From: an uncultured Gammaproteobacteria bacterium
GTDB lineage: Bacteria; Patescibacteriota; Microgenomatia; UBA10105; UBA927
Reading direction: 5' to 3'
DNA: 38,009 bases
Assembly: GCA_964429085.1 (NCBI GenBank)
Contig: CAYSAP010000001.1
Coordinates: 2,448-40,456 of the forward strand
Shown here: in pieces, positions 1-27,410 of the stretch
How the letters are laid out: every line of letters starts with the position of its first letter
How positions within the stretch are numbered: position 1 is the stretch's first letter
The notes under the pieces: generated by a model
Seen by the model: the letters and a program-made list of their open reading frames with translations, nothing else
Database searches by the model: none
Told to the model about the DNA's origin: nothing
Translations under genes and position numbers: made by a program

Positions 1-2
1 AC

Positions 3-497
3 GGCGGGCTTTCCGACACGAACAAGCAGAAAGTACTAAACGCGCTGAGTGTCCGGTATATTTTAGATAGAGCGGAAAACGCCAGTAACGAACAAACATA
101 TCCCCCACAGATATTCAAACTGGTTCATACGTTTGAGGATTGGCGTGTATATGAAAACACAAACGCACTGCCCCGCGCATATATGGAAAACGGAACCGCG
201 ACTATTCTCTCGTACGAGCCAGAGCGAGTGTCCATACAAACAGAAAGCAGTATTTCGTCGACTCTTGTCCTCACCGATACCTATTATCCGGGCTGGAAGG
301 CCAAAATAGATGATTTTGATGATGTTGCAATTGTGCGGGCCAACTGGGCAATGCGCGGCGTTATCGTTCCTGCAGGCCGACACATCGTCACCATGACCTA
401 TGCCCCGAAAAGTTCCTATTACGGTGCGATATTGAGTATGATAAGCATAGGAGCAACGGGTATCATTCTGGGATTCATTTCTAAAAAATGCGTATGA
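3..497 (+). CDS. YfhO-like polytopic membrane protein, C-terminal fragment (5' end outside the window)
   Basis: Frame 3 is open from nt 3 to the TGA at 495-497. The tail ..LNALSVRYIL..LPRAY..DTYYPGWKAKIDD..PAGRHIVTMTY plus a terminal TM helix matches the C-terminal module of the full-length paralogs at 7733-9982 and 11032-13341. Confidence 0.7.
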   Translation, partial: GGLSDTNKQKVLNALSVRYILDRAENASNEQTYPPQIFKLVHTFEDWRVYENTNALPRAYMENGTATILSYEPERVSIQTESSISSTLVLTDTYYPGWKAKIDDFDDVAIVRANWAMRGVIVPAGRHIVTMTYAPKSSYYGAILSMISIGATGIILGFISKKCV

Positions 498-2126
498 GCA
501 AACACACAAAAATATTTTTATGTATCATCGTCCTGATTGCCGCCGCTCTTAGGCTTAACCGTCTGACAGACGTCCCCCCTGGGGTTAACCGCGACGAGGC
601 ATCAATCGGAGTCACCGCATACTCCCTTATGACCACGGGCAAAGATGAATACGGCCGGTTTCTCCCGTTATCCTTTGAATCATTCGGGGACTGGAAGCTG
701 CCGCTGTATATCTACACGGCAATTCCGTTTGTAAAACTGTTCGGCCTTACGGAACTGGCCGTCCGCCTGCCATCTGCACTCGCCGGTGTTGCTTCGGTTG
801 CGGCGGTATATTATCTGGCACACCTGTTGTTCGCATCAGAAAGCATCGGGCTGCTGGCTGCGTTCTCGCTTGCCGTTATGCCGTGGCACATCCACATATC
901 CCGTCGAATCAGAAGCAATTGTCGCCGTATTTTTTACCATAGCAGGTTCCGTGTGCTTTCTGCGGGCTCTGAAACTCAAATCGTTACAAAGCCTCATATA
1001 CGCTGCCGTGCTGTTTGCGCTGACATACTATACCTATCACGGGAATCACGTATTTACGACATTGTTGCTTGCCGGGCTTGCCGGAATATATTGGGGTGAC
1101 ATCATAAAAATTCCCCGATGGTGGATAGCTTTGGGAACGGGTGCGATCATGGCACTTGTCATTCTCTCCGTCACTCTTACGGCAGACCACACCAAAATCG
1201 GCGGCATCAGCATCTTCGGCGACCCGACAGTCGTACATAACCAGATTGAACTCCCGAGACTCGCCCATGACAATCCGGATTCATTCACGGCACGCCTCAT
1301 TCATAACAGACTGACCTATGCCGTGACGGCGATATCTCAAAACTATCTCAAATCATACGGCCCCGAATTCCTGTTTATCAAAGGCGGCGGCAATAAAGCA
1401 CATAATATCCGGGGATTCGGCAATCTCTATCCCATAGACGCCCTGCTTCTTCTGTTTGGAGTTTCCGGTCTTATCGGTACGTTCAAACACAAGCATGCCA
1501 AATTTGTTCTCTGGTGGATGGCTATCGGAGGAATTGCAGCCGCTATCACCAAAGACGCGCCGCACAGCAACCGCATGCTCGCGGTGGTACCCTCGTTTGC
1601 TATCGGAGTAGCCGTGGGTCTGCATATGCTCTATGAAAAAATATCCCCGCATCTGAGGAAATATCCCGCGGCGGCATTGGTACTTATCTATTTTGTATCT
1701 ATATCCTGGTATCTGGATCTGTATTTTGTCCACTTCCCGAAAAACGAAGCGGCAAACTGGGGCTACGCCTACAAAAAACTGACTCCTGTACTGTTTACCC
1801 CGAACCATGCTTCCAAAAATATCGTGATGACCTATCCGCAGACATCTCCGTATATCTTTCTCCTATTTTACAGCGGCTATCCCCCCGCCCGGTACCAGAA
1901 AGAGGCAATCCGGTATCCGGTTTCCGCCGACGGATTTACCGACGTTTCAGGATTCGGAAGATTCTCATTCCGCGGAATAGACTGGAACAAAGATCCCAGT
2001 CTGCCCAACACGCTGCTTGTGGCGCATCAGGATGAAGTTCCTGACAATCTGGCCTCAAAAATTATTTCAACTATCAGTCTGCCCGATAATGCCATACAAT
2101 TTGTCGTAATTGATACCGGTAAATAA
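488..2126 (+). pseudogene. Frameshifted PMT_2/ArnT-like GT-C membrane glycosyltransferase (pseudogene, sequencing error or recoding)
   Basis: ORFs 488-1099 (frame 2) and 786-2126 (frame 3) together align end to end with the paralog at 2129-3778. Compare ..VNRDEASIGVTAYSL..KDEYGRFLPL..FGDWKLP..PWHIHISR|VESEAIVAVFF.. with ..LSHDETAIAYNAYSI..KDEYGVPFPL..FDDYKLP..PWHINFSRQLFESNGALFF. The +1 frame switch must lie at about nt 900-906 (atatcccgtcgaatc). The likely start is ATG 494, which forms an ATGA overlap with the upstream stop. Confidence 0.6.
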
Positions 2127-2128
2127 TT

Positions 2129-3778
2129 ATGAAACGGACACACATTCTCCTTTTTGTTATTCTGCTTCTGGGAGCAGTGCTCAGGTTTTACCGCCTCACA
2201 ACGGTTCCCCCTTCGCTTTCTCACGACGAAACGGCAATCGCCTATAACGCATACTCGATTCTGAAAACCGGCAAAGACGAATACGGGGTTCCTTTCCCGC
2301 TCTTGTTTAGGTCATTCGACGATTACAAGCTTCCCGGCATGGTGTACGCTTCCATTCCTGCGGTGGCAGCCTTCGGAACAACGGCTATGGGCGCCAGGTT
2401 CACATCTGCGTTTTTGGGATCACTGACGGTATTGCTTGTCTATCTTCTTGTGCATGAATTATTCCGGGGATCCGGTAAGCTGCGGCAATACAACCCCGAA
2501 ACGTATGCATTAGCATCCGCATTTTTCTTTGCCATATCACCGTGGCATATCAATTTTTCCCGGCAGCTGTTTGAATCCAACGGCGCGTTGTTTTTTCTAA
2601 GCTTTGCAGTGCTTATGCTGCTTACATCGCTGCGCAACGCCCGTTATCTGCTACCCGCCGCCTTGCTGTTGGCCGTTTCCGTGTATTTTTACTATTCCGT
2701 GCGGCTGGTGATTCCCTGTATTTTGCTCGCCTACTGGTTTATCAATAAAAAACAACTCGCCGCCCACAAGTTATTGGCTGCATGCTCCGTTCTTCTATTC
2801 CTTATTATTTTACTCCCTATCGGGAGCCAGATGTTTACCCGCAGAGGCTTAGAGCGCGTATCTATCGTAAGCATCGTGAACGATCCCAACTTTCACAAAT
2901 GGAAAGACGTATTCATACAATTTTATGCCACCCATCCGGACCCGGTCAGAAAAATGTTTTTTAACCAAAAAACAGCGCTCGTGTGGGCGGCCGCAGACAA
3001 CTATTGGAAAAACATTTCCCCGCTCCATGTATTTGCAAGCGGAACCAGCACGTATGGTTTACAGCACCCGTTTGAAATCCCGTTTATCGCAGTGGGTCTG
3101 CTGTTTTTTATATCATTTCCGCACCCGGGAAAATGGCTGCTGATCATATGGTTTCTGGCTTCATTTATACCCGGAGCATTAAGCACAAATCAGCCGAATG
3201 CGCTCCGCACGCTGCTCGGCTCTCCTTTTTTCTCCGTCTGCTCAGGAATAGGAGCCGTACAAATTTTCAAAGCCATAGAACAACGGAAACGGATATGGTA
3301 TGGTGCTGTACCGTTTGGCCTGATGCTTCTTTACTTTCTCTATACCTTTTACCAGTCGTACTTTATCGTGAATCCGACACGCAACGCTCTGGCATTCGGC
3401 GACGGGTACGAACAGATGATCAGATACGTACAAGCGCATGAGTCCCAATATGACCGCATCGTTATTTCCGGGTATTATTGGCGCCCCTATATTTTTATGC
3501 TCTATTGGAGCAAAACCGATCCGGAAACATACCAGAAAACCGGCTCCCGGCAGGGCTGGGGCAAATACGTATTTACCGGGGCCGAATGGGATAAAAACGA
3601 TATATTTCTCTATGACTCCTCCTTTGATCCCGAAACACTTGTGCTGCCCAAACCTGCTAAGACGCTGTTTATCCTGGCAAACCCTGAATACGAAAGAAAC
3701 CGGGAGCAATACTTGCATATCGATACGATTTCAGGGAGGCACGAGCCGGCCGTATTTATAGCAGCCTCGGTGAAATAG
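2129..3778 (+). CDS. PMT_2/ArnT-like GT-C membrane glycosyltransferase (GT39/GT83-like)
   Basis: 549-aa ORF. TM1 is followed by the acidic loop LSHDETAIAYNAYSILKTGKDEYG, typical of polyprenyl-P-sugar-dependent GT-C enzymes. Many hydrophobic segments follow, then a soluble C-terminal domain of about 150 aa. Confidence 0.8.
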   Translation: MKRTHILLFVILLLGAVLRFYRLTTVPPSLSHDETAIAYNAYSILKTGKDEYGVPFPLLFRSFDDYKLPGMVYASIPAVAAFGTTAMGARFTSAFLGSLTVLLVYLLVHELFRGSGKLRQYNPETYALASAFFFAISPWHINFSRQLFESNGALFFLSFAVLMLLTSLRNARYLLPAALLLAVSVYFYYSVRLVIPCILLAYWFINKKQLAAHKLLAACSVLLFLIILLPIGSQMFTRRGLERVSIVSIVNDPNFHKWKDVFIQFYATHPDPVRKMFFNQKTALVWAAADNYWKNISPLHVFASGTSTYGLQHPFEIPFIAVGLLFFISFPHPGKWLLIIWFLASFIPGALSTNQPNALRTLLGSPFFSVCSGIGAVQIFKAIEQRKRIWYGAVPFGLMLLYFLYTFYQSYFIVNPTRNALAFGDGYEQMIRYVQAHESQYDRIVISGYYWRPYIFMLYWSKTDPETYQKTGSRQGWGKYVFTGAEWDKNDIFLYDSSFDPETLVLPKPAKTLFILANPEYERNREQYLHIDTISGRHEPAVFIAASVK

Positions 3779-3806
3779 CAAAACCCCATAGTACGCATAT
3801 CAAAAC

Positions 3807-3835
3807 TTGCATATGCGGCAATAATATCCTATAAT
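3807..3835 (+). promoter_or_regulatory. sigma70-type promoter TTGCAT-N17-TATAAT, placed 6 nt upstream of ATG 3842 (leaderless configuration)
   Basis: TTGCAT lies at 3807-3812, a 17-nt spacer follows, and TATAAT lies at 3830-3835. Then acgcac precedes the ATG at 3842 and no Shine-Dalgarno is present. The inverted repeat CGCATAT(3794-3800)-N10-ATATGCG(3811-3817) overlaps the -35. Confidence 0.45.
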
Positions 3836-3841
3836 ACGCAC

Positions 3842-4183: not shown

Positions 4184-4188
4184 CGCAA

Positions 4189-5898
4189 TTATTTCCCCGT
4201 TTTTGCCGTCTCTTCGATGTAGCCTAACGTCAGCAGCTTTTTTAAGATTTCTTCCTGGTACCGCTTGTCAAAATTAAACGTACCGTCTATGTCAAAATTT
4301 TCGGTTCTTTCGAGTTTCCACCGGTACTGCCTGTCCGTCAGGGTGTCATTGAGTTTAAATAAACGGAAATAATTCGCGTCGAGAAATTCCGACATCCACC
4401 AGTTATAGGTAGAAGCATCTCCTCCCCAAGGAGCGAATCCCCGGTTAAAAACAATTATCCTCGGCCGATTCTTAGATAGATCCGCAATAAGCTCATCTTT
4501 TATTTTTGACGTGGCGGCGTGATTTAAAAACCAATGGTATTTGCTCGGCTGGCGTTTGGTATTGAGATAAAACAATTCCTCAAATTCGAACGGCCCGATA
4601 AATACATAGTCATCGGGAGATACGATTGTGTTCACATACGTAGCAACCTGCGGACGGTTATAGATTAATGGCGCCGTCCCCATATATTTCGGGAAAAATT
4701 TCTGTTCCATTTTCATGGCTAGATACAACGGAGTCGCTATCCAATACAGCAACAACAGCGCATACAAAGCGGAGAGCGCTGCTTTTTGCGAAAAAGCCGT
4801 CTTTTCTTCATCGAGTAATTCCCTGAGAGCCCACAATGCAAATAGACCGTTAAACATGGAGGTGATAATGTAAACAAACGCCTGATAATCGGTTTCTCGG
4901 ATAGATTGGGGGTTACTCCGGGCATTGGAAAAAACAAGCGTGATAACGAGCGGGAACAGGAATGTCCACCGCCCCCGCAGTATGACGAGTATTATCGCAA
5001 CCGCGCTGGAAAATGCGAGCGTAACCTGCACCGGATTACTGATCGGAAATCCGACGACTCCCCACAATGCCGGTAAGTAATTATTGATGAACGTATCGGC
5101 AATCACCGCGGCGTACCGGATCGGATTTATGGCGGCTCCCGGCGCATGCGGGTAATTATAAATGTAGTAATTGGTGTTATACACGACATTTGCCCAGTAA
5201 TAATCCGCGATACTTCCGGTAAACAGTAAATAGAGACCAAACAGGATATACGGAACCGAAAGAAGTACTACACCCGTCAATATCCTCCACAGTACGGTTT
5301 TGTTGGTATGTGTAGTTACAAACAAATACACCGCATAGAGGGACAGTGCCATCACGATAAATATATACGTCATAGACGTAAACCAACTCAGGAATGCAAA
5401 CCCGCCGGCAATGATAAGATCAGCCGTTTCAAACCGCTCGTTGTAATAATCCTTAAGAAACAAAAGGGCAAAGGACGGCAGGATAAAATATCCCGCTAAC
5501 GTGTCCGCAAGCAGCATATTGCCCCAAAAATATGTTCCGGATAACCCTATGACAAACAGAAGGATCACATAAAATGACAGATCCCGTTTAGGAAGACGTT
5601 GCTTGAGCAGCAAGCAGGACCCGACCAGCAGCATCCAGAGTACTACTTCCCAACCAATACGAAATTTCACAAATGATCGTCCCGCAAATGACAGCACCCC
5701 TGCTGCCATGACGTATGCTCCCGGCTGATGATGCTGGAACCAATCCCGATACGGCAATTTCCCTTCCGTGATATATCTGCCGCCGACTATACTGTCGAAC
5801 TCATCAGGATACTTTTCGTGAAACGCATTCGTAACGAAGAGAATAAGGAGAAGTAAAAAAATGAGAACAGACCTCCAGTACGGCTTCATACCATTCAT
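4189..5898 (-). CDS. Polytopic membrane protein, GT-C-like, with a soluble C-terminal domain of about 165 aa
   Basis: 569-aa ORF. TM1 is followed by the acidic loop HEKYPDEFDSIVGG, then roughly 10 or more hydrophobic segments and a hydrophilic C-terminus. It is the last gene of the minus-strand array. The start may be M1 (5898) or M4 (5889). Confidence 0.6.
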   Translation of the reverse strand: MNGMKPYWRSVLIFLLLLILFVTNAFHEKYPDEFDSIVGGRYITEGKLPYRDWFQHHQPGAYVMAAGVLSFAGRSFVKFRIGWEVVLWMLLVGSCLLLKQRLPKRDLSFYVILLFVIGLSGTYFWGNMLLADTLAGYFILPSFALLFLKDYYNERFETADLIIAGGFAFLSWFTSMTYIFIVMALSLYAVYLFVTTHTNKTVLWRILTGVVLLSVPYILFGLYLLFTGSIADYYWANVVYNTNYYIYNYPHAPGAAINPIRYAAVIADTFINNYLPALWGVVGFPISNPVQVTLAFSSAVAIILVILRGRWTFLFPLVITLVFSNARSNPQSIRETDYQAFVYIITSMFNGLFALWALRELLDEEKTAFSQKAALSALYALLLLYWIATPLYLAMKMEQKFFPKYMGTAPLIYNRPQVATYVNTIVSPDDYVFIGPFEFEELFYLNTKRQPSKYHWFLNHAATSKIKDELIADLSKNRPRIIVFNRGFAPWGGDASTYNWWMSEFLDANYFRLFKLNDTLTDRQYRWKLERTENFDIDGTFNFDKRYQEEILKKLLTLGYIEETAKTGK

Positions 5899-5922: not shown

Positions 5923-6846
5923 TCAACGTTTCTCTGCAAGGATCACCATATTATCTTTCATGGGTATATACAGAGGGAACCGCATCAGCGGCGTGTGACG
6001 GATACGTGCATATATCCAGGAGGCAATTGGGCTTTCACCTGTCGTCCTAGCAAGGTGCAGCACATACCCCAAGCTTAACCATTTGCCGACCCTATGCCAT
6101 CCGGCCGGCTTGAGTCCCGCCATATGAAGCAGTTTGGAGACGTTTTTCCGGTGAAAAAAGAATATATGCTGAGGGGGGATAAAAAACGTCCACCGCCGCT
6201 TCATAATTCTGGCGGCGATACTTCGGGTATCTCCCGTTGCGATTATGATGACACCGTCGGGTTTTAACAGCGTCACCAATTTTTTCATGTCGGCAAGAGG
6301 CTCCTGCAAATGCTCAAATACGTCAAACATCGTAATGACATCAAAACTCGCTTTGGGGTACGTCACCTCCTGGATAGTCCCCTCCTGTATCCGTTTCCCG
6401 CCGACCAATGTACTTGCTTTCCCTACCGCAAATGACGACGGGTCGAACCCATACGCATCATACCCCAGGGCTTTTGCGATCTCCACGACATATCCGAACG
6501 CGCAGCCGACATCCAGCAATGTTCCTGAGGGCTTCAGTCCGGAAATAAAGGTGAGAAACTTATGCAGGTTACGTACAATCAACGGCTTATCCAGTTCATA
6601 ATCCGCATAGGCACTCCGTGTCGGATCGCCTTCGTAATATCCTTCGGAATAAAACTCTTTCACAAACGTTGTGTAGTCCCTTTGAAGATCAGTCTGACCC
6701 AGATAACACTTCGGGCACCGGTAAATCCAATAGTCGTTCTTATGGAGATATTTTTCAAGCGGTATCCGGCAAAGAAGGCATCGCATAAGGGGGATATTAT
6801 GTGGTAAATAGTGCTGCATCTTTCCGGCGCCAGTGCTTTGACGCAT
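5923..6846 (-). CDS. Class I SAM-dependent methyltransferase with an N-terminal Zn-ribbon
   Basis: The CxxC...CxxC pattern (CLLCRIPL...YRCPKCYL) is followed by SAM motif I LLDVGCAFGYVV and ..DVITMFDVFEHL... The start is uncertain. ATGs at 6846, 6819 and 6786 are possible, and 6786 (MRCLLC..) avoids overlap with the upstream gene. Confidence 0.8.
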   Translation of the reverse strand: MRQSTGAGKMQHYLPHNIPLMRCLLCRIPLEKYLHKNDYWIYRCPKCYLGQTDLQRDYTTFVKEFYSEGYYEGDPTRSAYADYELDKPLIVRNLHKFLTFISGLKPSGTLLDVGCAFGYVVEIAKALGYDAYGFDPSSFAVGKASTLVGGKRIQEGTIQEVTYPKASFDVITMFDVFEHLQEPLADMKKLVTLLKPDGVIIIATGDTRSIAARIMKRRWTFFIPPQHIFFFHRKNVSKLLHMAGLKPAGWHRVGKWLSLGYVLHLARTTGESPIASWIYARIRHTPLMRFPLYIPMKDNMVILAEKR

Positions 6847-7717
6847 GCATACGAGATAGTAGTATAGCAGGTAATTTTATAAGTGCCATACCGTATCCTT
6901 GTAGCATGAGGGTGTCGCCTTTTACGATCGCCTGGAGCAGCCGGACCGGTGTCCAGAAAGAATGGGTAATCCAGAGTCCTGTATCGGACATATTTTTCCA
7001 TAAAAAAATAAATTGATTCCGGTATGCGATCCGCTTAATATCAGAAGGCGTATATGATGTTTTTATTTTTCCTTCCTCATGAAAATGTTCCACCACGCTG
7101 TTCCTCTCAAACACAATGCGGTATCCTGATTTGAGTATTTGGTAGGATACATCAATGTCTTCCCAGTAAAAAGGGTTATACAATGTGTCCATGCCTCCCA
7201 ATGTTTTCCATACGCTCAGCCGGAAAGCAGCACTCCCCCCGGAAACCCATGCCGTGTCCTCACGGTCTACTTCGCCTCTGGCATGAATAAAATACCCTTT
7301 TTCCCACCGCGCAATTCCGCGGCCTCGCAGAACCGTTCCGTTTGTTTCGTGACTCTTCTCGAGACATCCGACCGCGGCAACCAGAGGATCGGAAAAACGG
7401 GCCAAAAGCGGAGTAAGGAAATCCGCTTGCGGGCGCACGTCGGTATTCAAAAGCACGACGATGTCCCCCGTTGCCAGACACACGCCACTGTTTACATTAC
7501 CCGCAAATCCCTTCTGCCGTTTGTTTTCCGCGACAATGATATCGGGAAACGTTGTTTTGAGGTACGTCACCGATGCGTCCTCTGATGCGTCGTCTGCAAC
7601 GATGATTTGAGCATCAGGCGCGGCGTTACGTACGGACGGCAAATTTTTCCTAAGCAGATGCTCCCCGTTCCAATTGGGTAATACTATACTCACCCTCATA
7701 CGTTGTTGGTTCGTCAT
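6797..7717 (-). CDS. GT2-family glycosyltransferase (GT-A fold)
   Basis: VSIVLPNWNGEHLL...IIVADDASEDAS...VLLNTDV...YWEDIDVSYQILKSGYRIVF are GT2 hallmarks. Confidence 0.85.
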   Translation of the reverse strand: MTNQQRMRVSIVLPNWNGEHLLRKNLPSVRNAAPDAQIIVADDASEDASVTYLKTTFPDIIVAENKRQKGFAGNVNSGVCLATGDIVVLLNTDVRPQADFLTPLLARFSDPLVAAVGCLEKSHETNGTVLRGRGIARWEKGYFIHARGEVDREDTAWVSGGSAAFRLSVWKTLGGMDTLYNPFYWEDIDVSYQILKSGYRIVFERNSVVEHFHEEGKIKTSYTPSDIKRIAYRNQFIFLWKNMSDTGLWITHSFWTPVRLLQAIVKGDTLMLQGYGMALIKLPAILLSRMHASKHWRRKDAALFTT

Positions 7718-13341: not shown

Positions 13342-13350
13342 CCCGTTACA

Positions 13351-19735: not shown

Positions 19736-21258
19736 GTACGTTTATATGTCTTTCTCATCCATACCAGATACCCTAACACGCTTACTACACTCAGCATATC
19801 GGCGGCAAAGCGCATCGGCGTTTCACGAAACGCAGCCTCAAGACGGTGACTGCCCTGGGGAACTACGACACGCATTACCCCAAATGCATTGCCGTAATTT
19901 ATAGGTATTAGCCGGTCGTCAATGGTTATCCCCCAGCCAGGATAATATATTTTGTTGATCTGAACGATACTTTCGGTATTTGCTTCAATGTTGACGTTTA
20001 TTCGTTCTCCTGCAAATGTCCTCGAGGTAAAAGAAACATCCCCGTCTATAACCTCAAGCGTTTCAATGGGTCTCGATAACGGAATGTCGGACACCCATCG
20101 CGGCATATATTCATTAGCGACAGTTGTCGTAGCTTCGTTCGTCGTGTAGTACCCTGCTTCCCGGTTAACAAAAATCACGCGTTGCAACTGCCCTCCCGCT
20201 CCCTGGATCCAAATAAGCAAAAAGACGACGCAAAGCAACGTGTTTTGCCAGCCTTTTACCCGTTCCAGCGCCATAGCGACAATCCATGGCCCCAATAATA
20301 CGGGGATGACCAAAAATCTGTAAGGAAACTGTACAAGCTGGCTTACTATCGGCAGTTTCCAAATGAAAGAACTCAAAGCCAGGCTCATCAGCAATCCGCC
20401 TAGTACCAAAACAGCTATGGAAATATCCCGGAGTGGCAATTTTTTTCTGGAGCCCATCAATATTCCAAGCGCGATAACGGTAGAAAACCCAAGAAGCGTG
20501 GCGTTTTCCATACTGATAAAGTATGTTTCGGGACGCGATATCACCGTAAATCCAAAACGCACGAGACCCTTTTCCAACAATGCCGGCATCCAAAAAAATG
20601 CTGCGGCTCCGGCTCCGAACACAAACGACGCCATATACCGAAGCCTGTGCGCATGTGCCAATATGAGGACAAAAATCGCAGCTCCGGCTATAAGAGCTAC
20701 TGTATTGTGACTTACAATAAGCAGCGCGACTGACGGGGCAACTAACCAAATCCAGCTTTTTTCTATGGCCAGTAGGAGAAGAGCCGCTGCAAACATTGCC
20801 AAAACCTCACCGACGGAACCCCGACGATACAAATCATACAGAAGATACGGAGAAAATATAAAACTTAGCGAACCGACAAGACTGGGTACTATCCTAAACC
20901 TATTCCTAAGCGCTATAAAAATTGCTGCGGCAGCACCAATGACCGACGCGCCAAGAATAACTTTTACCGAATCCAAAAAAGACAAGCCAATCAGATGAAG
21001 AAGGCTTCCTATATAGAGAAACCCCGGGTATAAAAAGTTGGCAACCGGATACCCGTAGCTATTATGTAACCTGCCCAAATACCGCACGGGGAATTGCCCG
21101 TTTGCCAGGCTTTGATAAAAAGCGGAAAGCCGTATCACCATCCACTCGCCATCATCGGATACGTAAAATCCGGCGTGTGTAAGCGGCCATAAAACAAGGG
21201 CGAGTGCTATCCCCATGACTATAAGCACCGGGATGAGTAACGAGTTCTTTTTTTTCAT
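19732..21258 (-). CDS. Polytopic membrane protein, PTPS-related/GT-C-like (paralog of 18074-19735)
   Basis: ..YVSDDGEWMVIRLSAFYQSLANGQFPVRYLGRLHNSYGYPVANFLYPGFLY.. and the C-terminal ..NKIYYPGWGITIDD..GSHRLEAAF plus a terminal TM. ATGA overlaps occur at both ends. Confidence 0.65.
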   Translation of the reverse strand: MKKKNSLLIPVLIVMGIALALVLWPLTHAGFYVSDDGEWMVIRLSAFYQSLANGQFPVRYLGRLHNSYGYPVANFLYPGFLYIGSLLHLIGLSFLDSVKVILGASVIGAAAAIFIALRNRFRIVPSLVGSLSFIFSPYLLYDLYRRGSVGEVLAMFAAALLLLAIEKSWIWLVAPSVALLIVSHNTVALIAGAAIFVLILAHAHRLRYMASFVFGAGAAAFFWMPALLEKGLVRFGFTVISRPETYFISMENATLLGFSTVIALGILMGSRKKLPLRDISIAVLVLGGLLMSLALSSFIWKLPIVSQLVQFPYRFLVIPVLLGPWIVAMALERVKGWQNTLLCVVFLLIWIQGAGGQLQRVIFVNREAGYYTTNEATTTVANEYMPRWVSDIPLSRPIETLEVIDGDVSFTSRTFAGERINVNIEANTESIVQINKIYYPGWGITIDDRLIPINYGNAFGVMRVVVPQGSHRLEAAFRETPMRFAADMLSVVSVLGYLVWMRKTYKRT

Positions 21259-22778
21259 GGTAACGGTGCTGGAGCCGTGCCAACGCGGTAAAAACGAAGC
21301 TTCTTATGATCTTCACGCTGCGCTTTTTCGTATTCTCCAATAAGCGTAAGCGACCATTTCGGCGGAAGCATCTGGCTTTCGTTTAATACGAAATATGTCG
21401 CGCTTGCAGAAGCGGCGTCCACTATTTCCTGAGGCATAACCTGCGGCAACGGCCATAACCCTGTGATTTTTACGTTCGGGTTGTCGACGAGGTATATTTC
21501 AATAGCATACGGCATAAGTCCGAACGTTCCCTCCGTAAAGACGTTTACTTTTTGTGCTGCCGCTTCCGCACTAAGATAGGCGACCACTTCTTTTACTCCT
21601 CCCCCTGCAGGCCAATCGTCGATAAATTGACCCCTATCTGCAAGCGGAATCGGCGCTTCTTTGGGGGCACGCACGATAACATTCGTCACATAAAGACTTG
21701 GAAGAAACACTATGGCCACCAGAGCCAAGCGCACCATTGGCCGGCGAATGCGGTCCCATGCGTGTACCACCGCATAAGCCGCAATGATAAGAAGCGGTAT
21801 TGCCATAAAAAGGATAAATCGGGGATATAATATTTTCGCGAAATTCGCCAACGCCGCAAATGGTAACAGCCACCAAAGATATAACAACATGCGCTCCCGT
21901 ACTTTCGGCCATCTCGTGAACCACGGCACCATTGCCATAATAAACAGCGGGATTGTCAGGTAATGGCGTAACCAATCAAACATGCCGCGCAGATTGCCTG
22001 CAAAAAAACGAAACGGCTGATTTAACCATTCGGAAACGGTAAAAATAAACACATTGTCCTTTTGCCCCACTATATGGAAAAAAGGTGATAGCCGTAACAC
22101 GCTGTAACATACCTGCGATAGTACGGCGGCAATAGCAACTAACCCCGTCCACCTAACCAATCTTGCCCATCGGTCTTTCCGTTCCCAGTCGAACAACAGG
22201 AGAGTTACAGGCAAAAAATAGAGCGTCAGAAAACCGGAGCTTTTATTGAGTATTCCGGCTCCCAACACCATACCAAGCATCAATGCCGTATCTAAGCGTA
22301 CGTAACGGGCAAGTAACACAGCCAGGTAGAGGCCCCAAACTGAAAAAGTTGAAACTAACGAATCATAGAGTGCGATACGGTCATACCATGCGGTAAACGG
22401 CACGATCACGTAGAGGAGGCCGGTCAGCCAGGCGATACGCTTATCACGAAACAGCTCATGCGACACCAGCCACAATCCTATAAGCGTCGCAGCTCCCGCT
22501 ACAACGCTCGTTAACCTGCCGGCAAATAGTGGATCCGTTGACTCGAATACTTTAAGAAGCACCATCATGATCCAAGTGAACATCGGCTGTTTTCCGTCTG
22601 TCAGGGATATAAACCGCCAATTGGCATCCCGCATCCCGATCTGGGACCATCGGATATATATTGCTTCGTCCGTGAAAATAGGAAGGGCGGTGAGATTAAC
22701 AAGTCTCGTTAGGGCATAGAGTACTAAGATAGCTGCCGCTCCAAGTATCCACCAAAGCCATTGTTTGGTAATCCGCAT
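21255..22778 (-). CDS. PMT_2/ArnT-like GT-C membrane glycosyltransferase (GT39/GT83-like)
   Basis: TM1 is followed by ALPIFTDEAIYIRWSQ (acidic loop). The protein is polytopic with a soluble C-terminal domain. Confidence 0.8.
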   Translation of the reverse strand: MRITKQWLWWILGAAAILVLYALTRLVNLTALPIFTDEAIYIRWSQIGMRDANWRFISLTDGKQPMFTWIMMVLLKVFESTDPLFAGRLTSVVAGAATLIGLWLVSHELFRDKRIAWLTGLLYVIVPFTAWYDRIALYDSLVSTFSVWGLYLAVLLARYVRLDTALMLGMVLGAGILNKSSGFLTLYFLPVTLLLFDWERKDRWARLVRWTGLVAIAAVLSQVCYSVLRLSPFFHIVGQKDNVFIFTVSEWLNQPFRFFAGNLRGMFDWLRHYLTIPLFIMAMVPWFTRWPKVRERMLLYLWWLLPFAALANFAKILYPRFILFMAIPLLIIAAYAVVHAWDRIRRPMVRLALVAIVFLPSLYVTNVIVRAPKEAPIPLADRGQFIDDWPAGGGVKEVVAYLSAEAAAQKVNVFTEGTFGLMPYAIEIYLVDNPNVKITGLWPLPQVMPQEIVDAASASATYFVLNESQMLPPKWSLTLIGEYEKAQREDHKKLRFYRVGTAPAPLP

Positions 22779-22784
22779 ATCTTG

Positions 22785-22793: not shown

Positions 22794-22808
22794 GGAATCC
22801 CGTGAAAA

Positions 22809-23954
22809 CTAGGAAACAGAAGTGGATTTCCCGCTGCTGCGAGCCGGAATCAAGAGGCTTACAACTGCTATTCCTACGCCAATCCAGATAATTGATGTTT
22901 TCCAAAGCTGTTCAGTGACGGAATACTCTCCGAAATAGAGATACGGAGCATAACTAACTACAAGGCCCAGGGATATGACGGTTGCAAATGTCACGAGCTT
23001 ACTATAGTGCGCATTAAGCGCGACAAACGGCAGAATCCACACCCAATACCAGGGAAGAAATTCCCGCCTCAATAGCACCAGGGCAAGACCAAACATTATG
23101 GCCAAGAACATCCAGGTCACATTCTTCTTCAGCAAAAATACCGGTACCAAAAATATAGTCATAAACTTTGAGGCGACGGAGAGGGCGAGAAAAAACCATG
23201 ACGCAAGTGCATTTTTTTTGTAATAGCATATGGCCACTAACGCAAACGCGACCAATACTATATCGTTATGCCCGCTTACCAGCGATTCGATCAGAATAAG
23301 CGGATTGAGAGCAAACAACGCCAGTCCGTAAATTTTTTGTTTCGGACGTACTATATCCAAGGCATGCACAAGCGCCCAACACGCAAGGAGGTAAAAACCT
23401 GCAATCATAAACTTTGTCGCAAATAATACGAGAATAAAATATCCCAACCCGAAAAAATACGGTACCAGACTCAGCAAAATCCACAACGGCGTATATGCAC
23501 TCGTCAGATGTGTCCACCGCATGAAGTTCGTCCATGGATCTATACCAGAAAACTGCAGCGGCGTTACGGCGTAAGGATTTTGGTGATATACCAATACCGT
23601 TTTTGCTGTAAATAAATAGTTAAAAAAATCATAGGAAAATGCTGCAGGGTACGAAAACACGAGTATGACGGTCACGGCAATAATCAGCCTCCATATTGCC
23701 GCAAGTGTTATTTCCCCTTTTTTTACATAATGAAGCAGACCGGCATACAGTCCGAACAATGAAAAAAGTATGGAGACATATATAAGGGTCGAAAGCGGCC
23801 TCTGGTAGAATCCCACAAACTGAAACCCTTTTTGTATCGTTTGAACCAAACTAGCACGCGAAAGTGTGAGGTTGAGATCGACCTGCGTATAACTAAAAAA
23901 CAACAATGCAATAGCGGCAACTATGTATCCGGAAAAAGGTTTTGAATGTTTCAT
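22809..23954 (-). CDS. Polytopic membrane protein, GT87/DUF2029-like GT-C candidate
   Basis: The protein is about 381 aa and almost entirely hydrophobic. It carries ..FSYDFFNYLFTAKTVLVYHQNPY.. and ..SGHNDIVLVAF.. motifs reminiscent of PimE/GT87-type mannosyltransferases. Start ATG 23954 forms an ATGA overlap. The longest ORF extends to 24059. Confidence 0.5.
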   Translation of the reverse strand: MKHSKPFSGYIVAAIALLFFSYTQVDLNLTLSRASLVQTIQKGFQFVGFYQRPLSTLIYVSILFSLFGLYAGLLHYVKKGEITLAAIWRLIIAVTVILVFSYPAAFSYDFFNYLFTAKTVLVYHQNPYAVTPLQFSGIDPWTNFMRWTHLTSAYTPLWILLSLVPYFFGLGYFILVLFATKFMIAGFYLLACWALVHALDIVRPKQKIYGLALFALNPLILIESLVSGHNDIVLVAFALVAICYYKKNALASWFFLALSVASKFMTIFLVPVFLLKKNVTWMFLAIMFGLALVLLRREFLPWYWVWILPFVALNAHYSKLVTFATVISLGLVVSYAPYLYFGEYSVTEQLWKTSIIWIGVGIAVVSLLIPARSSGKSTSVS

Positions 23955-24703
23955 GTATATTTCCCCTGCCACGCATTTATCCGGATACGCAGGATATCCA
24001 CTAATCCCTGCGCGGAATCTTTGATAGGACTCACCCTTCTGGTTTCCACATAATGCCATTCTACCGGCACTTCTTTTATCTTAAACCCGAGTTTTTGTGC
24101 AAGAAACAGCGCTTCGATATCAAAACCGGCAGTCACCATGGGGCCGTGCACTTCATGCATGTTTCCATATAATTCGAGACGGGAAAATATATCTTTGGCC
24201 ACAGCGCGCTTAAATGCTTTAAACCCGCATTGCGTATCCGTTATACCCCTTAACCCTAACAATAATCCGCGCAATATCATAAATCCTCTCGCCATGATAA
24301 CCCGCGAAACCGGCGCACCCTCTCTTCTTCTGTTGCGGCTCCCTATAACAACGTCAAATCCGCGATCAAACCACGGCAATACTTTTTCCAGTTCCGAGAT
24401 GGGCGTTGCTTGGTCCAAATCCGAAAATAGCACGATCGACCCCTTGGCTTTCAGCATTCCGGATATAACGGTACCAGCTTTGCCTCTGTGCGGATTATGA
24501 TAAACGGTAAATCCCGGATTTGCCTGGGCGAATGCGTCAAGCAGCTTGGGTGAACCGTCCGTTGAACCGTCATCCACCAAGAGTGCCTCCCAGGCAAAGG
24601 ATTGGCGCTCCAGATAGCGCGAGACTTTATCAAGGCTTCCTAGCCGGATATTCGTTTCTTCGTTGTACGAAGGAATAATGACAGATAAAAACGGGCTGCT
24701 CAT
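23951..24703 (-). CDS. GT2 polyprenyl-phosphate hexosyltransferase-like enzyme (DPM1/ALG5/GtrB-like, no TM)
   Basis: FLSVIIPSYNEETNI..LLVDDGSTDGS..FSDLDQA..IGSRN..DTQCGFKAF..FDIEALF. Start ATG 24703 forms an ATGA overlap. The longest ORF extends to 24763. Confidence 0.8.
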   Translation of the reverse strand: MSSPFLSVIIPSYNEETNIRLGSLDKVSRYLERQSFAWEALLVDDGSTDGSPKLLDAFAQANPGFTVYHNPHRGKAGTVISGMLKAKGSIVLFSDLDQATPISELEKVLPWFDRGFDVVIGSRNRRREGAPVSRVIMARGFMILRGLLLGLRGITDTQCGFKAFKRAVAKDIFSRLELYGNMHEVHGPMVTAGFDIEALFLAQKLGFKIKEVPVEWHYVETRRVSPIKDSAQGLVDILRIRINAWQGKYT

Positions 24704-26301
24704 TTCGCTTCCTCTCCTTTGTAATGAACCAGTCCCATAACTTTGATAAACGATACCTGCCACTCGCCGTCAATTTCCGCCCTTCCGAATCCGGCGATCT
24801 CCCAAAGCGGATGCCCGAGAGGCTTACAGTCCTGCATCTCACAAATAATAATGAGCTGATCCGTAACACTCTTTCTTTCCGGATCCTTTTCGACGTTTTC
24901 TATGACAACTGGAGGATCCCCCCATATTTCAAAAAAATATCGGTACACATGATCGGAGTTAGAACTCGTCAGCAGCGCAAAGTTGTAGGGTTTGCCGCCT
25001 GTTTTTTCATATGCAGCTTTTGCAATCATTTTGGCTTGCCCCAGCTGATTATTCGGCTCGAATTTAAACGGCCTTCCTTCCCAATTGAGATATACAAGCG
25101 CCATGACAATAACGGCGGTTACTGCTTTACCGATCCTCGCCGCACGAACGCTTCGCAGAACAAGAGCCACTAACAAAAACGGCAGGGCAAAAAACAATCC
25201 GAAATAGTAATCATATATACCCTTTTTATAAAATCCAAAAAGCGTCAGCGGAATAATAAACCAAAGCAAAAATAGCACGACGCCGTAAAGTCCCGCCGCA
25301 GGATTGCCTGCGCGCGCGTTCTTGTTCCAGTTCACCGGCACTATGCGGGTGACATACGCGACGAGCAATCCCAAAGACGCAAAAAGGCTGAACTTTGTTC
25401 CGATTTCCCATATATGTTGGGCGACAACCGGAATATTTACCCATTGTTCCGGTGGCGGCAACCTAAATACGAGTCTGCCGAACAACCGGTAACTTACCTC
25501 TGATATATTTTTCCAGAACGTGCCTGTTACAAGTCCAGTGCCCTCGCCCTCACGGAGAAAGTTAACTATCGATATCGTGTTCGGAAACCCGTGACGCAGT
25601 TCAAACGCCAGAAAAGGACCGTACCCGATAATAAATCCCAACCCACCGAGTACATAATAGGTAAACCATGTTTTCGATCTTCCGTACATGAGATACCATA
25701 CGCCGACGACAGGAAACAAAAATAGAAAAAGGTAGTGCAATTGCAAACCAATACCCAATACGACCCCGATCCAAAACAGCAGCTTAGGATTATTTTTTGC
25801 CACGGAGTGCCATAATAAAAGGACAAGGAGCGAAGAAAAAAACGGAACCAGATTAGGATTCCAGGAGGAACGGGAATACGCAATGACTATCGGCGAAAAA
25901 CAATACAGTATTGCTGCAGTCAGTCCAACCCATTCGTCAAATAGGTCGCGGCCGAGCCTGTAGACTACATACATAGTTGCAATCCCAAAAAGCGCAACCA
26001 TGACGGCCGCTCCCGCAGGGTTAAGTCCCGATGCCCATACAAACGGCAACATAAAATAATAATAGATAGGTCCTAAAAAGAATCCTCCTACCGAAGCGGT
26101 TGGCCCAAGCAGCGTAAACGTATGATCCACGATCATGCGCTTGATAACCAGCATATCCCGTCCTTCATCGCCCAGGAACGTCATATACTCGGAAATACGG
26201 TAAAGCCGAAGATACGCGCCGAGCAGCAATATGACACATAACGCCATGAAGGGCAGATAAGGCGTGATCCGATGAAACAATTTAGTCATCCGTAATATCA
26301 T
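24700..26301 (-). CDS. PMT_2/ArnT-like GT-C membrane glycosyltransferase
   Basis: TM1 is followed by YMTFLGDEGRDMLVIKRM (acidic loop). The protein is polytopic with a soluble C-terminal domain. Start ATG 26301 forms an ATGA overlap. The longest ORF extends to 26379. Confidence 0.8.
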   Translation of the reverse strand: MILRMTKLFHRITPYLPFMALCVILLLGAYLRLYRISEYMTFLGDEGRDMLVIKRMIVDHTFTLLGPTASVGGFFLGPIYYYFMLPFVWASGLNPAGAAVMVALFGIATMYVVYRLGRDLFDEWVGLTAAILYCFSPIVIAYSRSSWNPNLVPFFSSLLVLLLWHSVAKNNPKLLFWIGVVLGIGLQLHYLFLFLFPVVGVWYLMYGRSKTWFTYYVLGGLGFIIGYGPFLAFELRHGFPNTISIVNFLREGEGTGLVTGTFWKNISEVSYRLFGRLVFRLPPPEQWVNIPVVAQHIWEIGTKFSLFASLGLLVAYVTRIVPVNWNKNARAGNPAAGLYGVVLFLLWFIIPLTLFGFYKKGIYDYYFGLFFALPFLLVALVLRSVRAARIGKAVTAVIVMALVYLNWEGRPFKFEPNNQLGQAKMIAKAAYEKTGGKPYNFALLTSSNSDHVYRYFFEIWGDPPVVIENVEKDPERKSVTDQLIIICEMQDCKPLGHPLWEIAGFGRAEIDGEWQVSFIKVMGLVHYKGEEAK

Positions 26302-27410
26302 GCATTCTTCCAAATAACCTTGGAATACATCGTGTAATTCCAAAAGAGCCCGATGCCGACGCCTATAAGATAAAACCATCGATACATGTCGTTCCCGAAA
26401 AGTAAGATACCCAGTGCAACGGTTCCCGACTGGATCAATAAGGCGCCTATACTGGTTGCGTTAAACTGTAAAAACTTCGGAACAAGCCTGAACCCCTGGA
26501 TCTTTTTTCCGCGGAATGTCCAATTATTATTAAGGAAAAAATTTGATATGATCGCGCATTCCGCTCCGATAGCGCTACCGGCGACAGGATGAAATCCCGA
26601 TCCCACCATCAATTCTAATATCGTGGTATTGATAATAAATCCTATGGAGCCTACAACGGCAAATTTAGAAAATGAACCGTGTCGTAACTGCCGGGCTCTC
26701 GCTGTTCCGACATAGAGAAATACGTTCCGGATATACTGAAGCGGAGCGATTTTTGACCTGCCGAACCGGCGATCAGTAAATTTAATAGGAACTTCGCCGA
26801 CTTTGGCTCCCGCAAGTATCGCGTTATGAAGAAATGCTATCTGATACACATAGCCGCTATGTTTTGCGACTTTGTGTTTTACCATTTCAAAATATGATTT
26901 CCTCAGTACCCGATATCCGCCGGTCCAATCGTGCACATGGGAAAAACCCAAACCAAACCGGACTATTGAGTTTCCTACAACACTAAAAATTTTTCTATGA
27001 ATCCCCCAATTTTCCGGTATGGAACCGCCCGGTATGTAGCGGCTTCCCACCACAAAATCGGCTCCTCCTGATATCTTTTTGAAAAACTCCGGCAAACTCG
27101 ACGGGTCATGAGATAAATCCGCATCCATCTGCCCGATGATATCGGCATCCAGGGTGTCAATCGCGTACGTCATCCCGCGGAGTAACGCTTTGCCTAAACC
27201 CTCTTTCTTCCCGCTTAGAATTTTGACATTGTCATGGGTCTTTGCAAATTCTCTAACTTCATCCTGTGTTCCATCCGGCGAGTTATCATCCACGACGAGA
27301 ATCGTGAATGTGTACCCTTTAATCAAGCGGGTCACCTCCATGAGGCGCGAGAGCATGGTTTTGATATTATCCCGCTCGTTGTATGTCGGAAGAATGATGA
27401 CTGCTTTCAT
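26298..27410 (-). CDS. Polyprenyl-phosphate mannosyl/hexosyl-transferase (DPM1/Ppm1/GtrB-like GT2) fused to a C-terminal GtrA-like 4-TM domain
   Basis: MKAVIILPTYNERDNI..ILVVDDNSPDGT..QMDADLSHDP..VGSRY. The C-terminal FSKFAVVGSIGFIINTTILELMV...ISNFFLNNNWTFR is the GtrA hallmark. Confidence 0.85.
   Translation of the reverse strand: MKAVIILPTYNERDNIKTMLSRLMEVTRLIKGYTFTILVVDDNSPDGTQDEVREFAKTHDNVKILSGKKEGLGKALLRGMTYAIDTLDADIIGQMDADLSHDPSSLPEFFKKISGGADFVVGSRYIPGGSIPENWGIHRKIFSVVGNSIVRFGLGFSHVHDWTGGYRVLRKSYFEMVKHKVAKHSGYVYQIAFLHNAILAGAKVGEVPIKFTDRRFGRSKIAPLQYIRNVFLYVGTARARQLRHGSFSKFAVVGSIGFIINTTILELMVGSGFHPVAGSAIGAECAIISNFFLNNNWTFRGKKIQGFRLVPKFLQFNATSIGALLIQSGTVALGILLFGNDMYRWFYLIGVGIGLFWNYTMYSKVIWKNA

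Follow-up and report, generated by a model that had tools for sequence, protein, structure and literature searches.

Which pathway is encoded by a bacterial locus in which polytopic membrane proteins follow one another over some 27 kb, and does it belong to any known kind of glycan gene cluster? The question is raised by a stretch of 38,009 nucleotides (nt) of contig CAYSAP010000001.1, referred to below as the window. In the original prediction, which was made from the letters of this DNA alone, eleven membrane glycosyltransferases (GTs) of the GT-C type were assigned to it, and the layout was said to match no known cluster grammar. The answer favoured here is that the window is probably the right part of a conserved island for cell-surface glycosylation in a small-genome groundwater bacterium of the Gottesmanbacteria, in which multi-component transmembrane glycosylation systems are stacked; this is judged from sequence homology and from analogy with characterized systems. 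The eleven polytopic proteins are lettered A to K from left to right, and the three synthase-like GTs of family 2 (GT2) are named PPS1 to PPS3.

Almost nothing is known of the envelope chemistry of Patescibacteria, or Candidate Phyla Radiation (CPR) bacteria. Their surfaces are believed to serve a lifestyle of obligate attachment. No description of this array was found in the open-access literature on CPR bacteria, an absence that is no proof of novelty. In a study of Saccharibacteria, the glycosylation processes of these organisms are called unexplored (PMC11623550).

GT-C nature of the polytopic proteins

All eleven polytopic proteins are supported, by homology and by modelled folds, as putative GT-C-type glycosyltransferases (Table 1). 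For ten of them the homology comes from hidden Markov model (HMM), profile or fold evidence of their own, and for J from its orthologues alone. Hydropathy plots showed multiple transmembrane (TM) segments in every full-length protein, with overlapping peaks that make exact counts unreliable. The acidic motif that had been noted after TM1 is present (RDE, HDE, TDE, GDEGRD, PDEFD, HDD, SDD), and each family alignment shows its key acidic residues to be invariant, namely D32/E33/D35 in the D family, D36 in the H/G family, D37 in the PMT_2 group, D60 in the YfhO group and D26 in the J family. According to the positive-inside rule, the motif would be placed in the first extracytoplasmic loop. The donor may well be a lipid-phosphate-linked sugar, as suggested by the adjoining GT2s of the DPMS/ArnC/GtrB class and by the GtrA fusions of the D family described below.

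A transporter reading of these proteins was rejected, as neither a transporter family nor a significant transporter fold match was obtained in any search of the polytopic proteins. The HMM, profile and fold evidence leads to GT-C enzymes and in no case to transporters, so that the GT-C calls of the original prediction were borne out. The figure of 17,515 nt given there for the eleven intervals, about 46% of the window, was also recomputed with the same result (46.1% of the window and 63.9% of positions 1-27410).

The YfhO and PMT families

Matches were judged by the Pfam gathering cut-offs, which are 28.5 bits for YfhO (PF09586), 26.1 for PMT_2 (PF13231) and PMT (PF02366), 25 for GT87 (PF09594) and 26.4 for PTPS_related (PF10131). 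The YfhO cut-off was reached by A, E and F and missed by G and H; that of PMT_2/PMT was reached by the N-terminal part of B and by I and K, and missed by C. E and F are 31% identical over 741 amino acids (aa), and YfhO-type C-terminal domains are common to A, E, F, G and H. The C-terminus of F resembles PgfM2 and PgfM1 of NCBIfam at a sub-threshold level (PgfM2 44 bits against a cut-off of 1500), and a sub-threshold NCBIfam match to Agl23 was found for C. The N-termini of B and C are 43% identical (BLASTP E 2e-32), and the C-terminal part of B is likewise homologous to C. Of the sub-families proposed originally, PMT and YfhO are thus found above cut-off, whereas the labels 'PTPS-related-like' and 'GT87-like' hold only by way of orthologues or sub-threshold matches.

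Ten of the eleven open reading frames (ORFs) are present as first given, but 488-2126 is not a single ORF. Its 1,639 nt are no multiple of 3 and are covered by two frames, 488-1099 and 786-2126. When the DNA was aligned with intact orthologues from two relatives (L006 and L014), a 2-nt deletion (GTGT to GT) was located at 902/903. The orthologues of B run uninterrupted for 544 aa; the disruption is either a pseudogene or an assembly error. The ORF 3-497 is real, but it is a mere C-terminal fragment, containing the last TM only, of a gene that is cut by the left edge of the window and whose full-length orthologues measure about 780 aa (L001, L006).

Orphan family D and the divergent members G, H and J

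D is encoded by the last gene of the long minus-strand array and has a C-terminal α/β domain. It has no Pfam or NCBIfam match, no significant profile-profile link to the other GT-C groups (Prob <7%), and when the profile of its family was run against PDB sequences only GABA-receptor noise was returned (E >=0.03). Its fold was modelled with AlphaFold2 from a 42-sequence alignment, with a predicted local distance difference test score (pLDDT) of 92.6 and a predicted template modelling score (pTM) of 0.90. The model has at least 13 long helices, and the best 14 Foldseek matches in the PDB are all GT-C enzymes (STT3, PglB, AftA, ArnT, DPY19) with E 1.6e-5 to 2e-3 and TM-scores of 0.36-0.47; AftB and AftD are matched as well. 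In an exhaustive profile search, 1,602 representative relatives were found at E <=1e-3. Ten distant members of the family were scanned, and an N-terminal GtrA_DPMS_TM fusion was found in three of them (P0425, P0431, P0444), a PMT_2 match above cut-off in one (35.8 bits) and a weak one in another. Because distant members are fused to this domain, they provide independent evidence that the D family may work with polyprenyl-phosphate sugars.

It was considered whether D could be an oligosaccharyltransferase. This assignment was not adopted, as no conserved WWDxG motif is present in the sequence or the consensus, no STT3 HMM match was obtained, and the relatives are GtrA-fused or PMT_2-matching. 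One D orthologue (P0040) carries a precomputed match to the Pfam model PF26265. D is a putative GT-C family without characterisation or curated annotation in the libraries searched.

H, a paralogue of G, has no Pfam match of its own. The H/G family profile (35 sequences) was compared with the other groups by hhalign; against the YfhO group, the membrane part was matched with Prob 93.8 (E 1.7e-7) and the C-terminal domain with Prob 97.3, and against the PMT_2 group the value was Prob 87.3. YfhO is matched by 8 of the 35 members and PTPS_related by 3. The PTPS_related cut-off is reached neither by G nor by H, which has no match at all to this model; a genuine PTPS_related gene (72 bits) is found in relatives just left of the position of the window. 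When the H-family and J-family profiles were run against PDB sequences, no matches were obtained.

J is the weakest of the eleven. Its own sequence matches no Pfam model even when E values up to 10 are admitted, and it does not reach the GT87 cut-off; 28 of its 34 orthologues match GT87 at E <=0.01 (best 3.8e-10), and precomputed matches to PF26314 and PF09594 are recorded for J orthologues. The model of J (pLDDT 81.5, disordered at 107-154) gave no significant PDB match in Foldseek (best E 0.31, ALG12 at rank 26), and its profile is linked to the PMT_2 group at an insignificant Prob of 43%. J would hence be a divergent GT87 relative, not a demonstrated member of that family.

Synthases, flippase and cytoplasmic glycosyltransferases

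Three of the GT2s are predicted to be polyprenyl-phosphate sugar synthases. PPS1 matches the Dol-P-Man synthase of Pyrococcus furiosus (PDB 5mlz) over residues 1-367 with E 4e-41 and has the same architecture. The best PDB matches of PPS2 are ArnC (E 1e-13), DPMS (E 3e-12) and GtrB, and its NCBIfam matches to PgfS and ArnC are sub-threshold. For PPS3, the best match is DPMS 5mlz (E 5e-16), followed by ArnC and GtrB, and the NCBIfam matches (PgfS, AglJ, Dol-P-hexose transferase, ArnC) are again all sub-threshold. Each of the three synthase-like GT2s was placed directly upstream of GT-C genes, and the gene of PPS3 overlaps that of the MOP flippase.

Three of the four other GT2s (GT2a, GT2c and GT2d) served as a control, in which DPMS was found at about E 1e-5 or was absent. 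The best PDB match of GT2a is 6yv7, deposited as 'Glycosyl transferase, family 2', and not DPMS, ArnC or GtrB; that of GT2c is a galactofuranosyltransferase (E 3e-9), and that of GT2d is the flagellin glycosyltransferase GmaR (E 1.9e-15). Since the control GT2s best match structures other than DPMS, ArnC and GtrB, the division made earlier into three synthase-like GT2s and five other GT2/GT4 proteins is supported. The flippase, methyltransferase and nucleotide-sugar genes that had been recognised beside the GT-Cs were likewise confirmed by Pfam and NCBIfam matches. The NCBIfam matches of the flippase itself (MOP flippase, TuaB, O-glycosylation Wzx) are sub-threshold, and the methyltransferase presumably acts on a sugar.

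Priming, polymerising and export machinery

No priming phosphoglycosyltransferase (PGT) of the WecA/MraY or WbaP/Bac_transf families, and no Wzy, Wzz, ABC exporter, LtaS or TagF, was found among the window ORFs of at least 100 aa, nor was any such machinery found in the roughly 21 kb that adjoin on the left in relatives; on this point the original prediction was upheld. The window contains no Wzy_C or Wzz match, although a cryptic polymerase could still be hidden among the orphan polytopic proteins. No match to Glyphos_transf, Sulfatase or ABC2 was found in it either, and its sole ABC-related protein is the division protein FtsX (37349-37930). The components that define Wzx/Wzy O-antigen or capsule loci (a PGT, and Wzy with Wzz or another polysaccharide copolymerase) are thus lacking, as are those of teichoic-acid loci (TagF/TarF, LtaS, TagGH). 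The further claim that export machinery is missing altogether holds for an ABC exporter; it was overstated, since the MOP flippase at 15915-17420 and the GtrA/DPMS TM domain of PPS1 are present.

Conservation and extent of the island

Those homologues of window proteins that carry a source name all come from Patescibacteria, Gottesmanbacteria or Roizmanbacteria, and the nearest retrievable genome is that of Candidatus Gottesmanbacteria nzgw410 (Patescibacteria group, Microgenomates group). The synteny comparison suggested with the original prediction was carried out, and the gene order around A to E was found to be the same in nine loci of Gottesmanbacteria-like metagenome-assembled genomes (MAGs), with an identity of 59-100% for gene A. 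More distant Microgenomates-like loci are reshuffled, similarly rich in GT-Cs, and contain the same synthase, flippase and GT2 genes. The intact orthologues, together with acidic residues and gene order conserved down to 59% identity, argue for purifying selection.

The title 'uncultured Gammaproteobacteria bacterium' is given to several island-bearing MAGs (L007, L012, L015-L018, L021). Mislabelling of these bins is probable, because they share 55-74% identity and the gene order with Gottesmanbacteria.

Exact-sequence look-ups of C and D gave no record, and the left flank was read from relatives in which D is 79-88% or A 59-100% identical. Within 10 kb to the left of gene A, nzgw410 has genes for six full-length GT-Cs above cut-off (PTPS_related with 72 bits, four PMT_2 and one GT87) and a seventh, partial GT-C gene. 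The next 10 kb or so to the left, read from a JGI contig, encode a further four GT-C-like proteins as well as two GT2s, one GT4 and the first part of a second MOP flippase. Over the left stretch of about 21 kb as a whole (L006:1-10000 and L033:11691-21638), ten more GT-C-like genes (PTPS_related, PMT_2, GT87, YfhO-like) and a DUF5667 protein were counted. A composite of the window and its relatives has about 21 GT-C-like genes in about 50 kb. The island would accordingly span at least 27 kb and probably more than 50 kb, within a genome that contigs of 1.02 and 1.22 Mb suggest to be about 1 Mb in size.

In the neighbourhoods of YfhO homologues from Acidobacteria, Deltaproteobacteria, Elusimicrobia and Actinomycetota, 1-2 GT-C-like ORFs were counted per ~20 kb, as against 8-11 in Patescibacterial loci, in a BLAST-based count that is biased towards relatives of the window. 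To our knowledge, which is no census, this would be among the densest GT-C arrays.

The slot between C and D (3779-4188) is variable. In three relatives (L003 at 11711-13672, L009 and L010), it holds an extra polytopic protein of 653-688 aa, with about 12 hydrophobic segments, a C-terminal soluble domain and no Pfam match. A 113-aa ORF of the window (3842-4183) was considered as a remnant of the 653-aa membrane protein of relatives and was rejected, as no similarity was found.

Gene layout and neighbouring genes

Between 32394 and 4189, the genes of the minus strand all point the same way and either overlap by 4 nt or leave gaps of at most 30 nt; this tight packing is consistent with long operons. 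A tRNA scan of the window gave no hits. The coordinates of all assigned genes are collected in Table 1.

Table 1. Genes of the island within the window, from left to right, with the assignment and its basis
Feature	Position	Strand	Assignment	Basis
A	3..497	+	YfhO-family GT-C, C-terminal 164 aa	Pfam YfhO 47.9 bits, profile positions 757-835
B	488..2126	+	PMT_2/PMT-family GT-C, frameshifted	N-terminal part: PMT_2 35.6 bits, PMT 34.5 bits
C	2129..3778	+	PMT_2-like GT-C, B paralogue, HDE motif after TM1	PMT_2 23.4 bits, below 26.1 cut-off
D	4189..5898	-	Putative orphan-family GT-C, STT3/PglB/AftA/ArnT-like fold	AlphaFold2 + Foldseek
Methyltransferase	5923..6846	-	S-adenosylmethionine-dependent methyltransferase	Pfam Methyltransf_23 98.7 bits
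GT2a	6797..7717	-	Cytoplasmic GT-A glycosyltransferase	Glycos_transf_2 76 bits
E	7733..9982	-	YfhO-family GT-C, 749 aa	Pfam YfhO 49.2 bits
GT4	9986..11035	-	Cytoplasmic GT4 (GT-B fold)	Glycos_transf_1 82 bits + Glyco_transf_4
F	11032..13341	-	YfhO-family GT-C, 769 aa	Pfam YfhO 111.2 bits
GT2b	13351..14154	-	Cytoplasmic GT-A glycosyltransferase	Glycos_transf_2 60.9 bits
GT2c	14096..15052, likely start 15016	-	Cytoplasmic GT-A glycosyltransferase	Glyco_tranf_2_3 + Glycos_transf_2
GT2d	15013..15918	-	Cytoplasmic GT-A glycosyltransferase	Glycos_transf_2 92 bits
MOP flippase	15915..17420, likely start 17366	-	MOP-superfamily (Wzx-like) flippase	Pfam Polysacc_synt_3 166 bits
PPS3	17353..18117, likely start 18102	-	TM-less GT2, same synthase class as PPS2	Directly upstream of MOP flippase
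G	18074..19735	-	YfhO/PTPS_related-like GT-C, HDD motif	YfhO 17.8, PTPS_related 12.6 bits, both sub-threshold
H	19732..21258	-	G paralogue, GT-C, SDD motif	BLASTP to G E 1e-27
I	21255..22778	-	PMT_2-family GT-C, TDE motif	Pfam PMT_2 45.0 bits
J	22809..23954	-	GT87-related polytopic protein, 381 aa	Orthologue HMM matches
PPS2	23951..24763, likely start 24703	-	TM-less GT2, polyprenyl-phosphate sugar synthase class	PDB relatives
K	24700..26301	-	PMT_2-family GT-C, GDEGRD motif	Pfam PMT_2 44.4 bits
PPS1	26298..27410	-	GT2 fused to GtrA/DPMS-type 4-TM domain	Glycos_transf_2 95 + GtrA_DPMS_TM 71 bits
SDR	27434..28390	-	Nucleoside diphosphate (NDP)-sugar 4,6-dehydratase/epimerase-type short-chain dehydrogenase/reductase (SDR)	GDP_Man_Dehyd 285 bits
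UDP-glucose dehydrogenase	28423..29718	-	UDP-glucose 6-dehydrogenase	Three UDPG_MGDP_dh domains; NCBIfam NDP-sugar dehydrogenase 458 bits, above cut-off
RmlD-like	29784..30695, likely start 30662	-	dTDP-4-keto-6-deoxyhexose reductase	RmlD_sub_bind 174 bits
RmlB	30659..31747, likely start 31645	-	dTDP-glucose 4,6-dehydratase	TIGR01181 474.6 bits, above 365 cut-off
RmlA-like	31645..32394	-	Glucose-1-phosphate nucleotidylyltransferase	NTP_transferase 188 bits

Several of the nucleotide-sugar genes fall short of the NCBIfam cut-offs, namely the SDR (gmd and LegB both below cut-off), the RmlD-like reductase (rmlD 160 bits, below 224) and the RmlA-like enzyme (rmlA 231 bits, below cut-off). An RmlC (3,5-epimerase) was not found in the window; its gene may lie elsewhere, or the pathway may end in a dTDP-sugar other than L-rhamnose.

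Right of 32394 lie unrelated housekeeping genes, encoding CAP, TsaB, Sua5, TsaE, VanZ, a Lamin-tail-domain (LTD) protein, an M23 peptidase and FtsX. Counted from the first in-frame GTG, the TsaB-like ORF (33659-34072) has 137 aa and shares about 100 nt with the Sua5 gene upstream, so that translation may really begin at an internal start. Of the 264 positions of the TsaD profile in Pfam, only 30-86 are matched, and the gene may be truncated. At 36198-37930, the M23 peptidase, which has a PcsB-like coiled-coil, adjoins FtsX, and the pair looks like an FtsEX-PcsB-type division hydrolase module of the Gram-positive kind.

Proposed mechanism

In the multi-component systems described in other bacteria, the C55-P-sugar is the product of a GT-A enzyme; once a flippase of the GtrA or Wzx type has brought it to the outer face, its sugar is passed on to a wall polymer by a GT-C that has an external DxD-like motif (PMC8035078). 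By analogy, nucleotide sugars in the island would be supplied by the rmlA-, rmlB- and rmlD-like genes, the UDP-glucose dehydrogenase and the SDR. The three GT2s of the DPMS/ArnC/GtrB class would load single sugars onto polyprenyl monophosphate at the inner membrane face, and the lipid-linked sugars would be flipped by the GtrA/DPMS TM domain of PPS1, by the MOP flippase, or by both. The eleven GT-Cs, together with about ten more on the left in relatives, would then transfer the sugars to extracytoplasmic acceptors, using the acidic motif in the first outside loop. The donors, the flipping, the direction of transfer and the modules described next are inferred from the families, folds, gene order and conservation reported above.

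Four modules may be distinguished. From 27410 to 24700, a synthase and a GT-C would form a pair comparable to ArnC/ArnT or YkcC/YkcB. From 24703 to 18074, one synthase is followed by four GT-Cs (GT87-like, PMT_2 and two YfhO/PTPS-like), which would imply one donor for several positions or for several acceptors. The block from 18102 to 4189 comprises PPS3, the MOP flippase, three GT2s, YfhO, GT4, YfhO, GT2, the methyltransferase and D, and appears similar to the cluster for the lactococcal polysaccharide pellicle (PSP). On the plus strand, the run of YfhO, PMT_2 and PMT_2 from 3 to 3778 would continue the left-hand array. The description of the locus in the original prediction as a multi-branch extracytoplasmic glycosylation factory may be regarded as a fair one.

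Acceptors and alternative explanations

As to the acceptors, three leads are available. The LTD protein (35340-36152, minus strand) has a signal-like N-terminus, a C-terminal TM anchor and a stretch of 40 aa in which Ser+Thr make up 55% and Ser+Thr+Pro 82%. It is a candidate acceptor for O-glycosylation, like the targets of streptococcal YfhO enzymes, of which PgtC2 and PgfM1 glycosylate Ser/Thr-rich extracytoplasmic protein regions (PMC12041528). The YfhO-type C-terminal domains of A, E, F, G and H would favour a glycopolymer acceptor, such domains having been proposed to bind carbohydrate acceptors (PMC8035078). The third lead is GT2d, whose nearest solved relative, GmaR, glycosylates flagellin. 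Our guess is that a wall-associated glycopolymer and Ser/Thr-rich surface proteins both serve as acceptors.

Against the reading of the island as stacked multi-component systems, it has to be considered that neither a stand-alone GtrA nor a small activator of the GacJ/WpsB kind was found next to PPS2 or PPS3, that the NCBIfam equivalog cut-offs are not reached by the synthases and the SDR, and that the GT-C status of J comes from orthologue HMM matches only, its model having no PDB match. Gene B is frameshifted in this genome, and all sequences compared come from metagenome bins. The flanks covered extend to about 21 kb on the left, in relatives, and to about 5.6 kb on the right of the island, and a priming PGT elsewhere in the genome could feed the branch of the MOP flippase. 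This last point leads to the explanation that the central block is an ordinary Wzx-dependent undecaprenyl-diphosphate repeat-unit pathway, whose PGT and perhaps polymerase are encoded elsewhere, the GT-Cs merely decorating its product. A MOP flippase and several soluble GTs are combined in O-antigen and capsule loci too, only part of the genome was inspected, and WecA, TagO and other priming enzymes are frequently encoded away from the clusters they serve. TagO primes the lactococcal rhamnan (PMC10821137). Still, neither PGT nor Wzy nor Wzz was found in the 38 kb window or in the left flank of relatives, and upstream of the flippase a synthase-class GT2 adjoins and overlaps it, as in the C55-P-primed PSP and in GacI/GacK, so that this pathway is regarded as unlikely. 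Far more improbable is the possibility that the polytopic proteins are no glycosyltransferases at all (being transporters, for example) or that the array is decaying or non-functional; C, D, G, H and J do lack an above-threshold HMM match of their own and B is interrupted, but the HMM, profile-profile and fold evidence all indicates GT-C, and the orthologues are intact and in order down to 59% identity.

The two other explanations concern what is glycosylated. The island could mainly serve protein glycosylation, with GT-Cs that O-glycosylate Ser/Thr-rich disordered regions of surface proteins, pilins or an S-layer, D transferring a glycan en bloc. The PMT_2/PMT families do include protein O-mannosyltransferases, and an actinobacterial PMT O-glycosylates proteins. 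In the same direction point the likeness of F to PgfM2/PgfM1 and of the synthases to PgfS, all at sub-threshold level, the best solved relative of GT2d (GmaR), the best fold matches of D (STT3 and PglB) and the LTD protein with its Ser/Thr/Pro-rich tract. The same families, however, also act on teichoic acids, lipid A and wall polysaccharides (PMC8035078), D lacks both a WWDxG-type motif and an STT3 HMM match, and some twenty GT-Cs far exceed any known protein glycosylation system; a mainly protein-directed island is possible, if on the whole doubtful. It is also conceivable, though rather improbable, that successive linkage-specific GT-Cs build one large glycopolymer outside the membrane from few polyprenyl-P-sugars, in the manner of mycobacteria. 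This would accord with the many GT-C paralogues of several families beside only three synthases in the window, with GT87 being the family of PimE, with weak GT-C_AftD matches in relatives and the fold matches of D to AftA, AftB and AftD, and with the retention of YfhO-type C-terminal domains in five of the proteins. Yet a pathway for a lipid anchor or primer was not found, the likeness is at superfamily level only, and independent decoration systems would fit the data equally well.

Significance

Tentatively, and with less than even confidence, it may be proposed that Gottesmanbacteria, and perhaps Microgenomates widely, assemble their main surface glycoconjugate almost wholly outside the cytoplasm, by means of about twenty clustered GT-Cs and few polyprenyl-monophosphate sugars and with no PGT. 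If so, about 5% of a genome of some 1 Mb would accommodate a mycobacterium-style extracytoplasmic assembly line, the product of which would be a novel glycopolymer of the wall or surface, or else a dense coat of glycoproteins, for host attachment or phage evasion. The expenditure of several per cent of a minimal genome on some twenty GT-Cs implies an important role for a complex surface glycan in these cells. Concrete candidates can now be named, i.e. the three synthases, the orphan GT-C family D with its predicted STT3-like fold and the LTD protein as possible Ser/Thr-rich acceptor, and the array offers a natural test bed for the diversification of donors and acceptors among GT-C paralogues.

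Comparison with known systems

The closest likeness is to the multi-component transmembrane systems, such as GtrA/GtrB/GtrV, CsbB/GtcA/YfhO, GtlA/GtlB, GacI/J/K/L and ArnC/ArnT, with which the island has in common a synthase of the GT-A type, a flippase of the GtrA or Wzx type and a polytopic GT-C whose outside loop bears an acidic motif. In both, the GT-A and GT-C genes adjoin and the YfhO and PMT_2 families are used. Synthases are encoded with GT-Cs in the island, and flippases are represented by the GtrA_DPMS_TM domain of PPS1 and the Polysacc_synt_3 match of the MOP protein, flipping itself being predicted. The known systems have one GT-C per synthase and number one to four per genome, whereas the island has 11 GT-Cs and three synthases in 27 kb and no stand-alone GtrA.

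Synthesis of lactococcal PSP proceeds without a PGT (PMC10821137): the TM-less GT2 WpsA starts it on C55-monophosphate, the chain is lengthened by GTs in the cytoplasm and flipped by the Wzx-like WpsG, and GT-C-fold enzymes carry out polymerisation or ligation. The gene content and order of the block from 18102 to 4189 resemble those of this cluster (WpsA/B-C-D-E-F-G-H-I-J), as judged by protein families, and rhamnose-pathway genes are nearby in both. In contrast to PSP, the block has no WpsB/GacJ-like activator and no rhamnan ABC-transporter pathway as acceptor, and it has three GT-Cs (two YfhO-like and D) and a methyltransferase. The earlier statement that the layout fits no known cluster grammar could not be maintained, since it agrees with the multi-component transmembrane systems (PMC8035078) and, in its central block, with a PSP-like pathway (PMC10821137). 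As neither of these requires a PGT, the absence of a PGT is to be expected and is not evidence for a new grammar.

The streptococcal GtrB/PgtC2 and PgfS/PgfE/PgfM1/PgfM2 systems likewise combine a GT2 synthase with YfhO-family GT-Cs, and a Ser/Thr/Pro-rich membrane-anchored protein is near. The island differs in that its NCBIfam scores are far below the equivalog cut-offs, in its larger number of GT-Cs and in having no adhesin genes inside. With the mycobacterial EmbA/B/C, AftA-D, PimE/GT87 and MptA-C enzymes, which build arabinogalactan, lipoarabinomannan (LAM) and PIM glycans outside the membrane, it shares the presence of many GT-C paralogues beside few polyprenyl-P-sugars, along with GT87, weak GT-C_AftD matches and a fold of D similar to AftA; this is a superfamily-level likeness only. 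In mycobacteria the genes are for the most part scattered, over a genome exceeding this one more than fourfold in size. No decaprenyl-P-arabinose pathway is evident in the island. D resembles STT3, PglB and AglB in its best fold matches (STT3 and PglB, E 1.6e-5 to 6e-4, TM-score 0.38-0.47), its D-E-x-D motif in the first loop and its C-terminal soluble domain; it differs from them in having neither an STT3 HMM match nor WWDxG, and in relatives that point to monophosphate-sugar rather than diphosphate-oligosaccharide donors. The class of mechanism is thus a known one, and what is new lies in the scale and clustering (some 20 GT-Cs, belonging to five or more sequence families, within a minimal genome), in the many GT-Cs per synthase and in family D.

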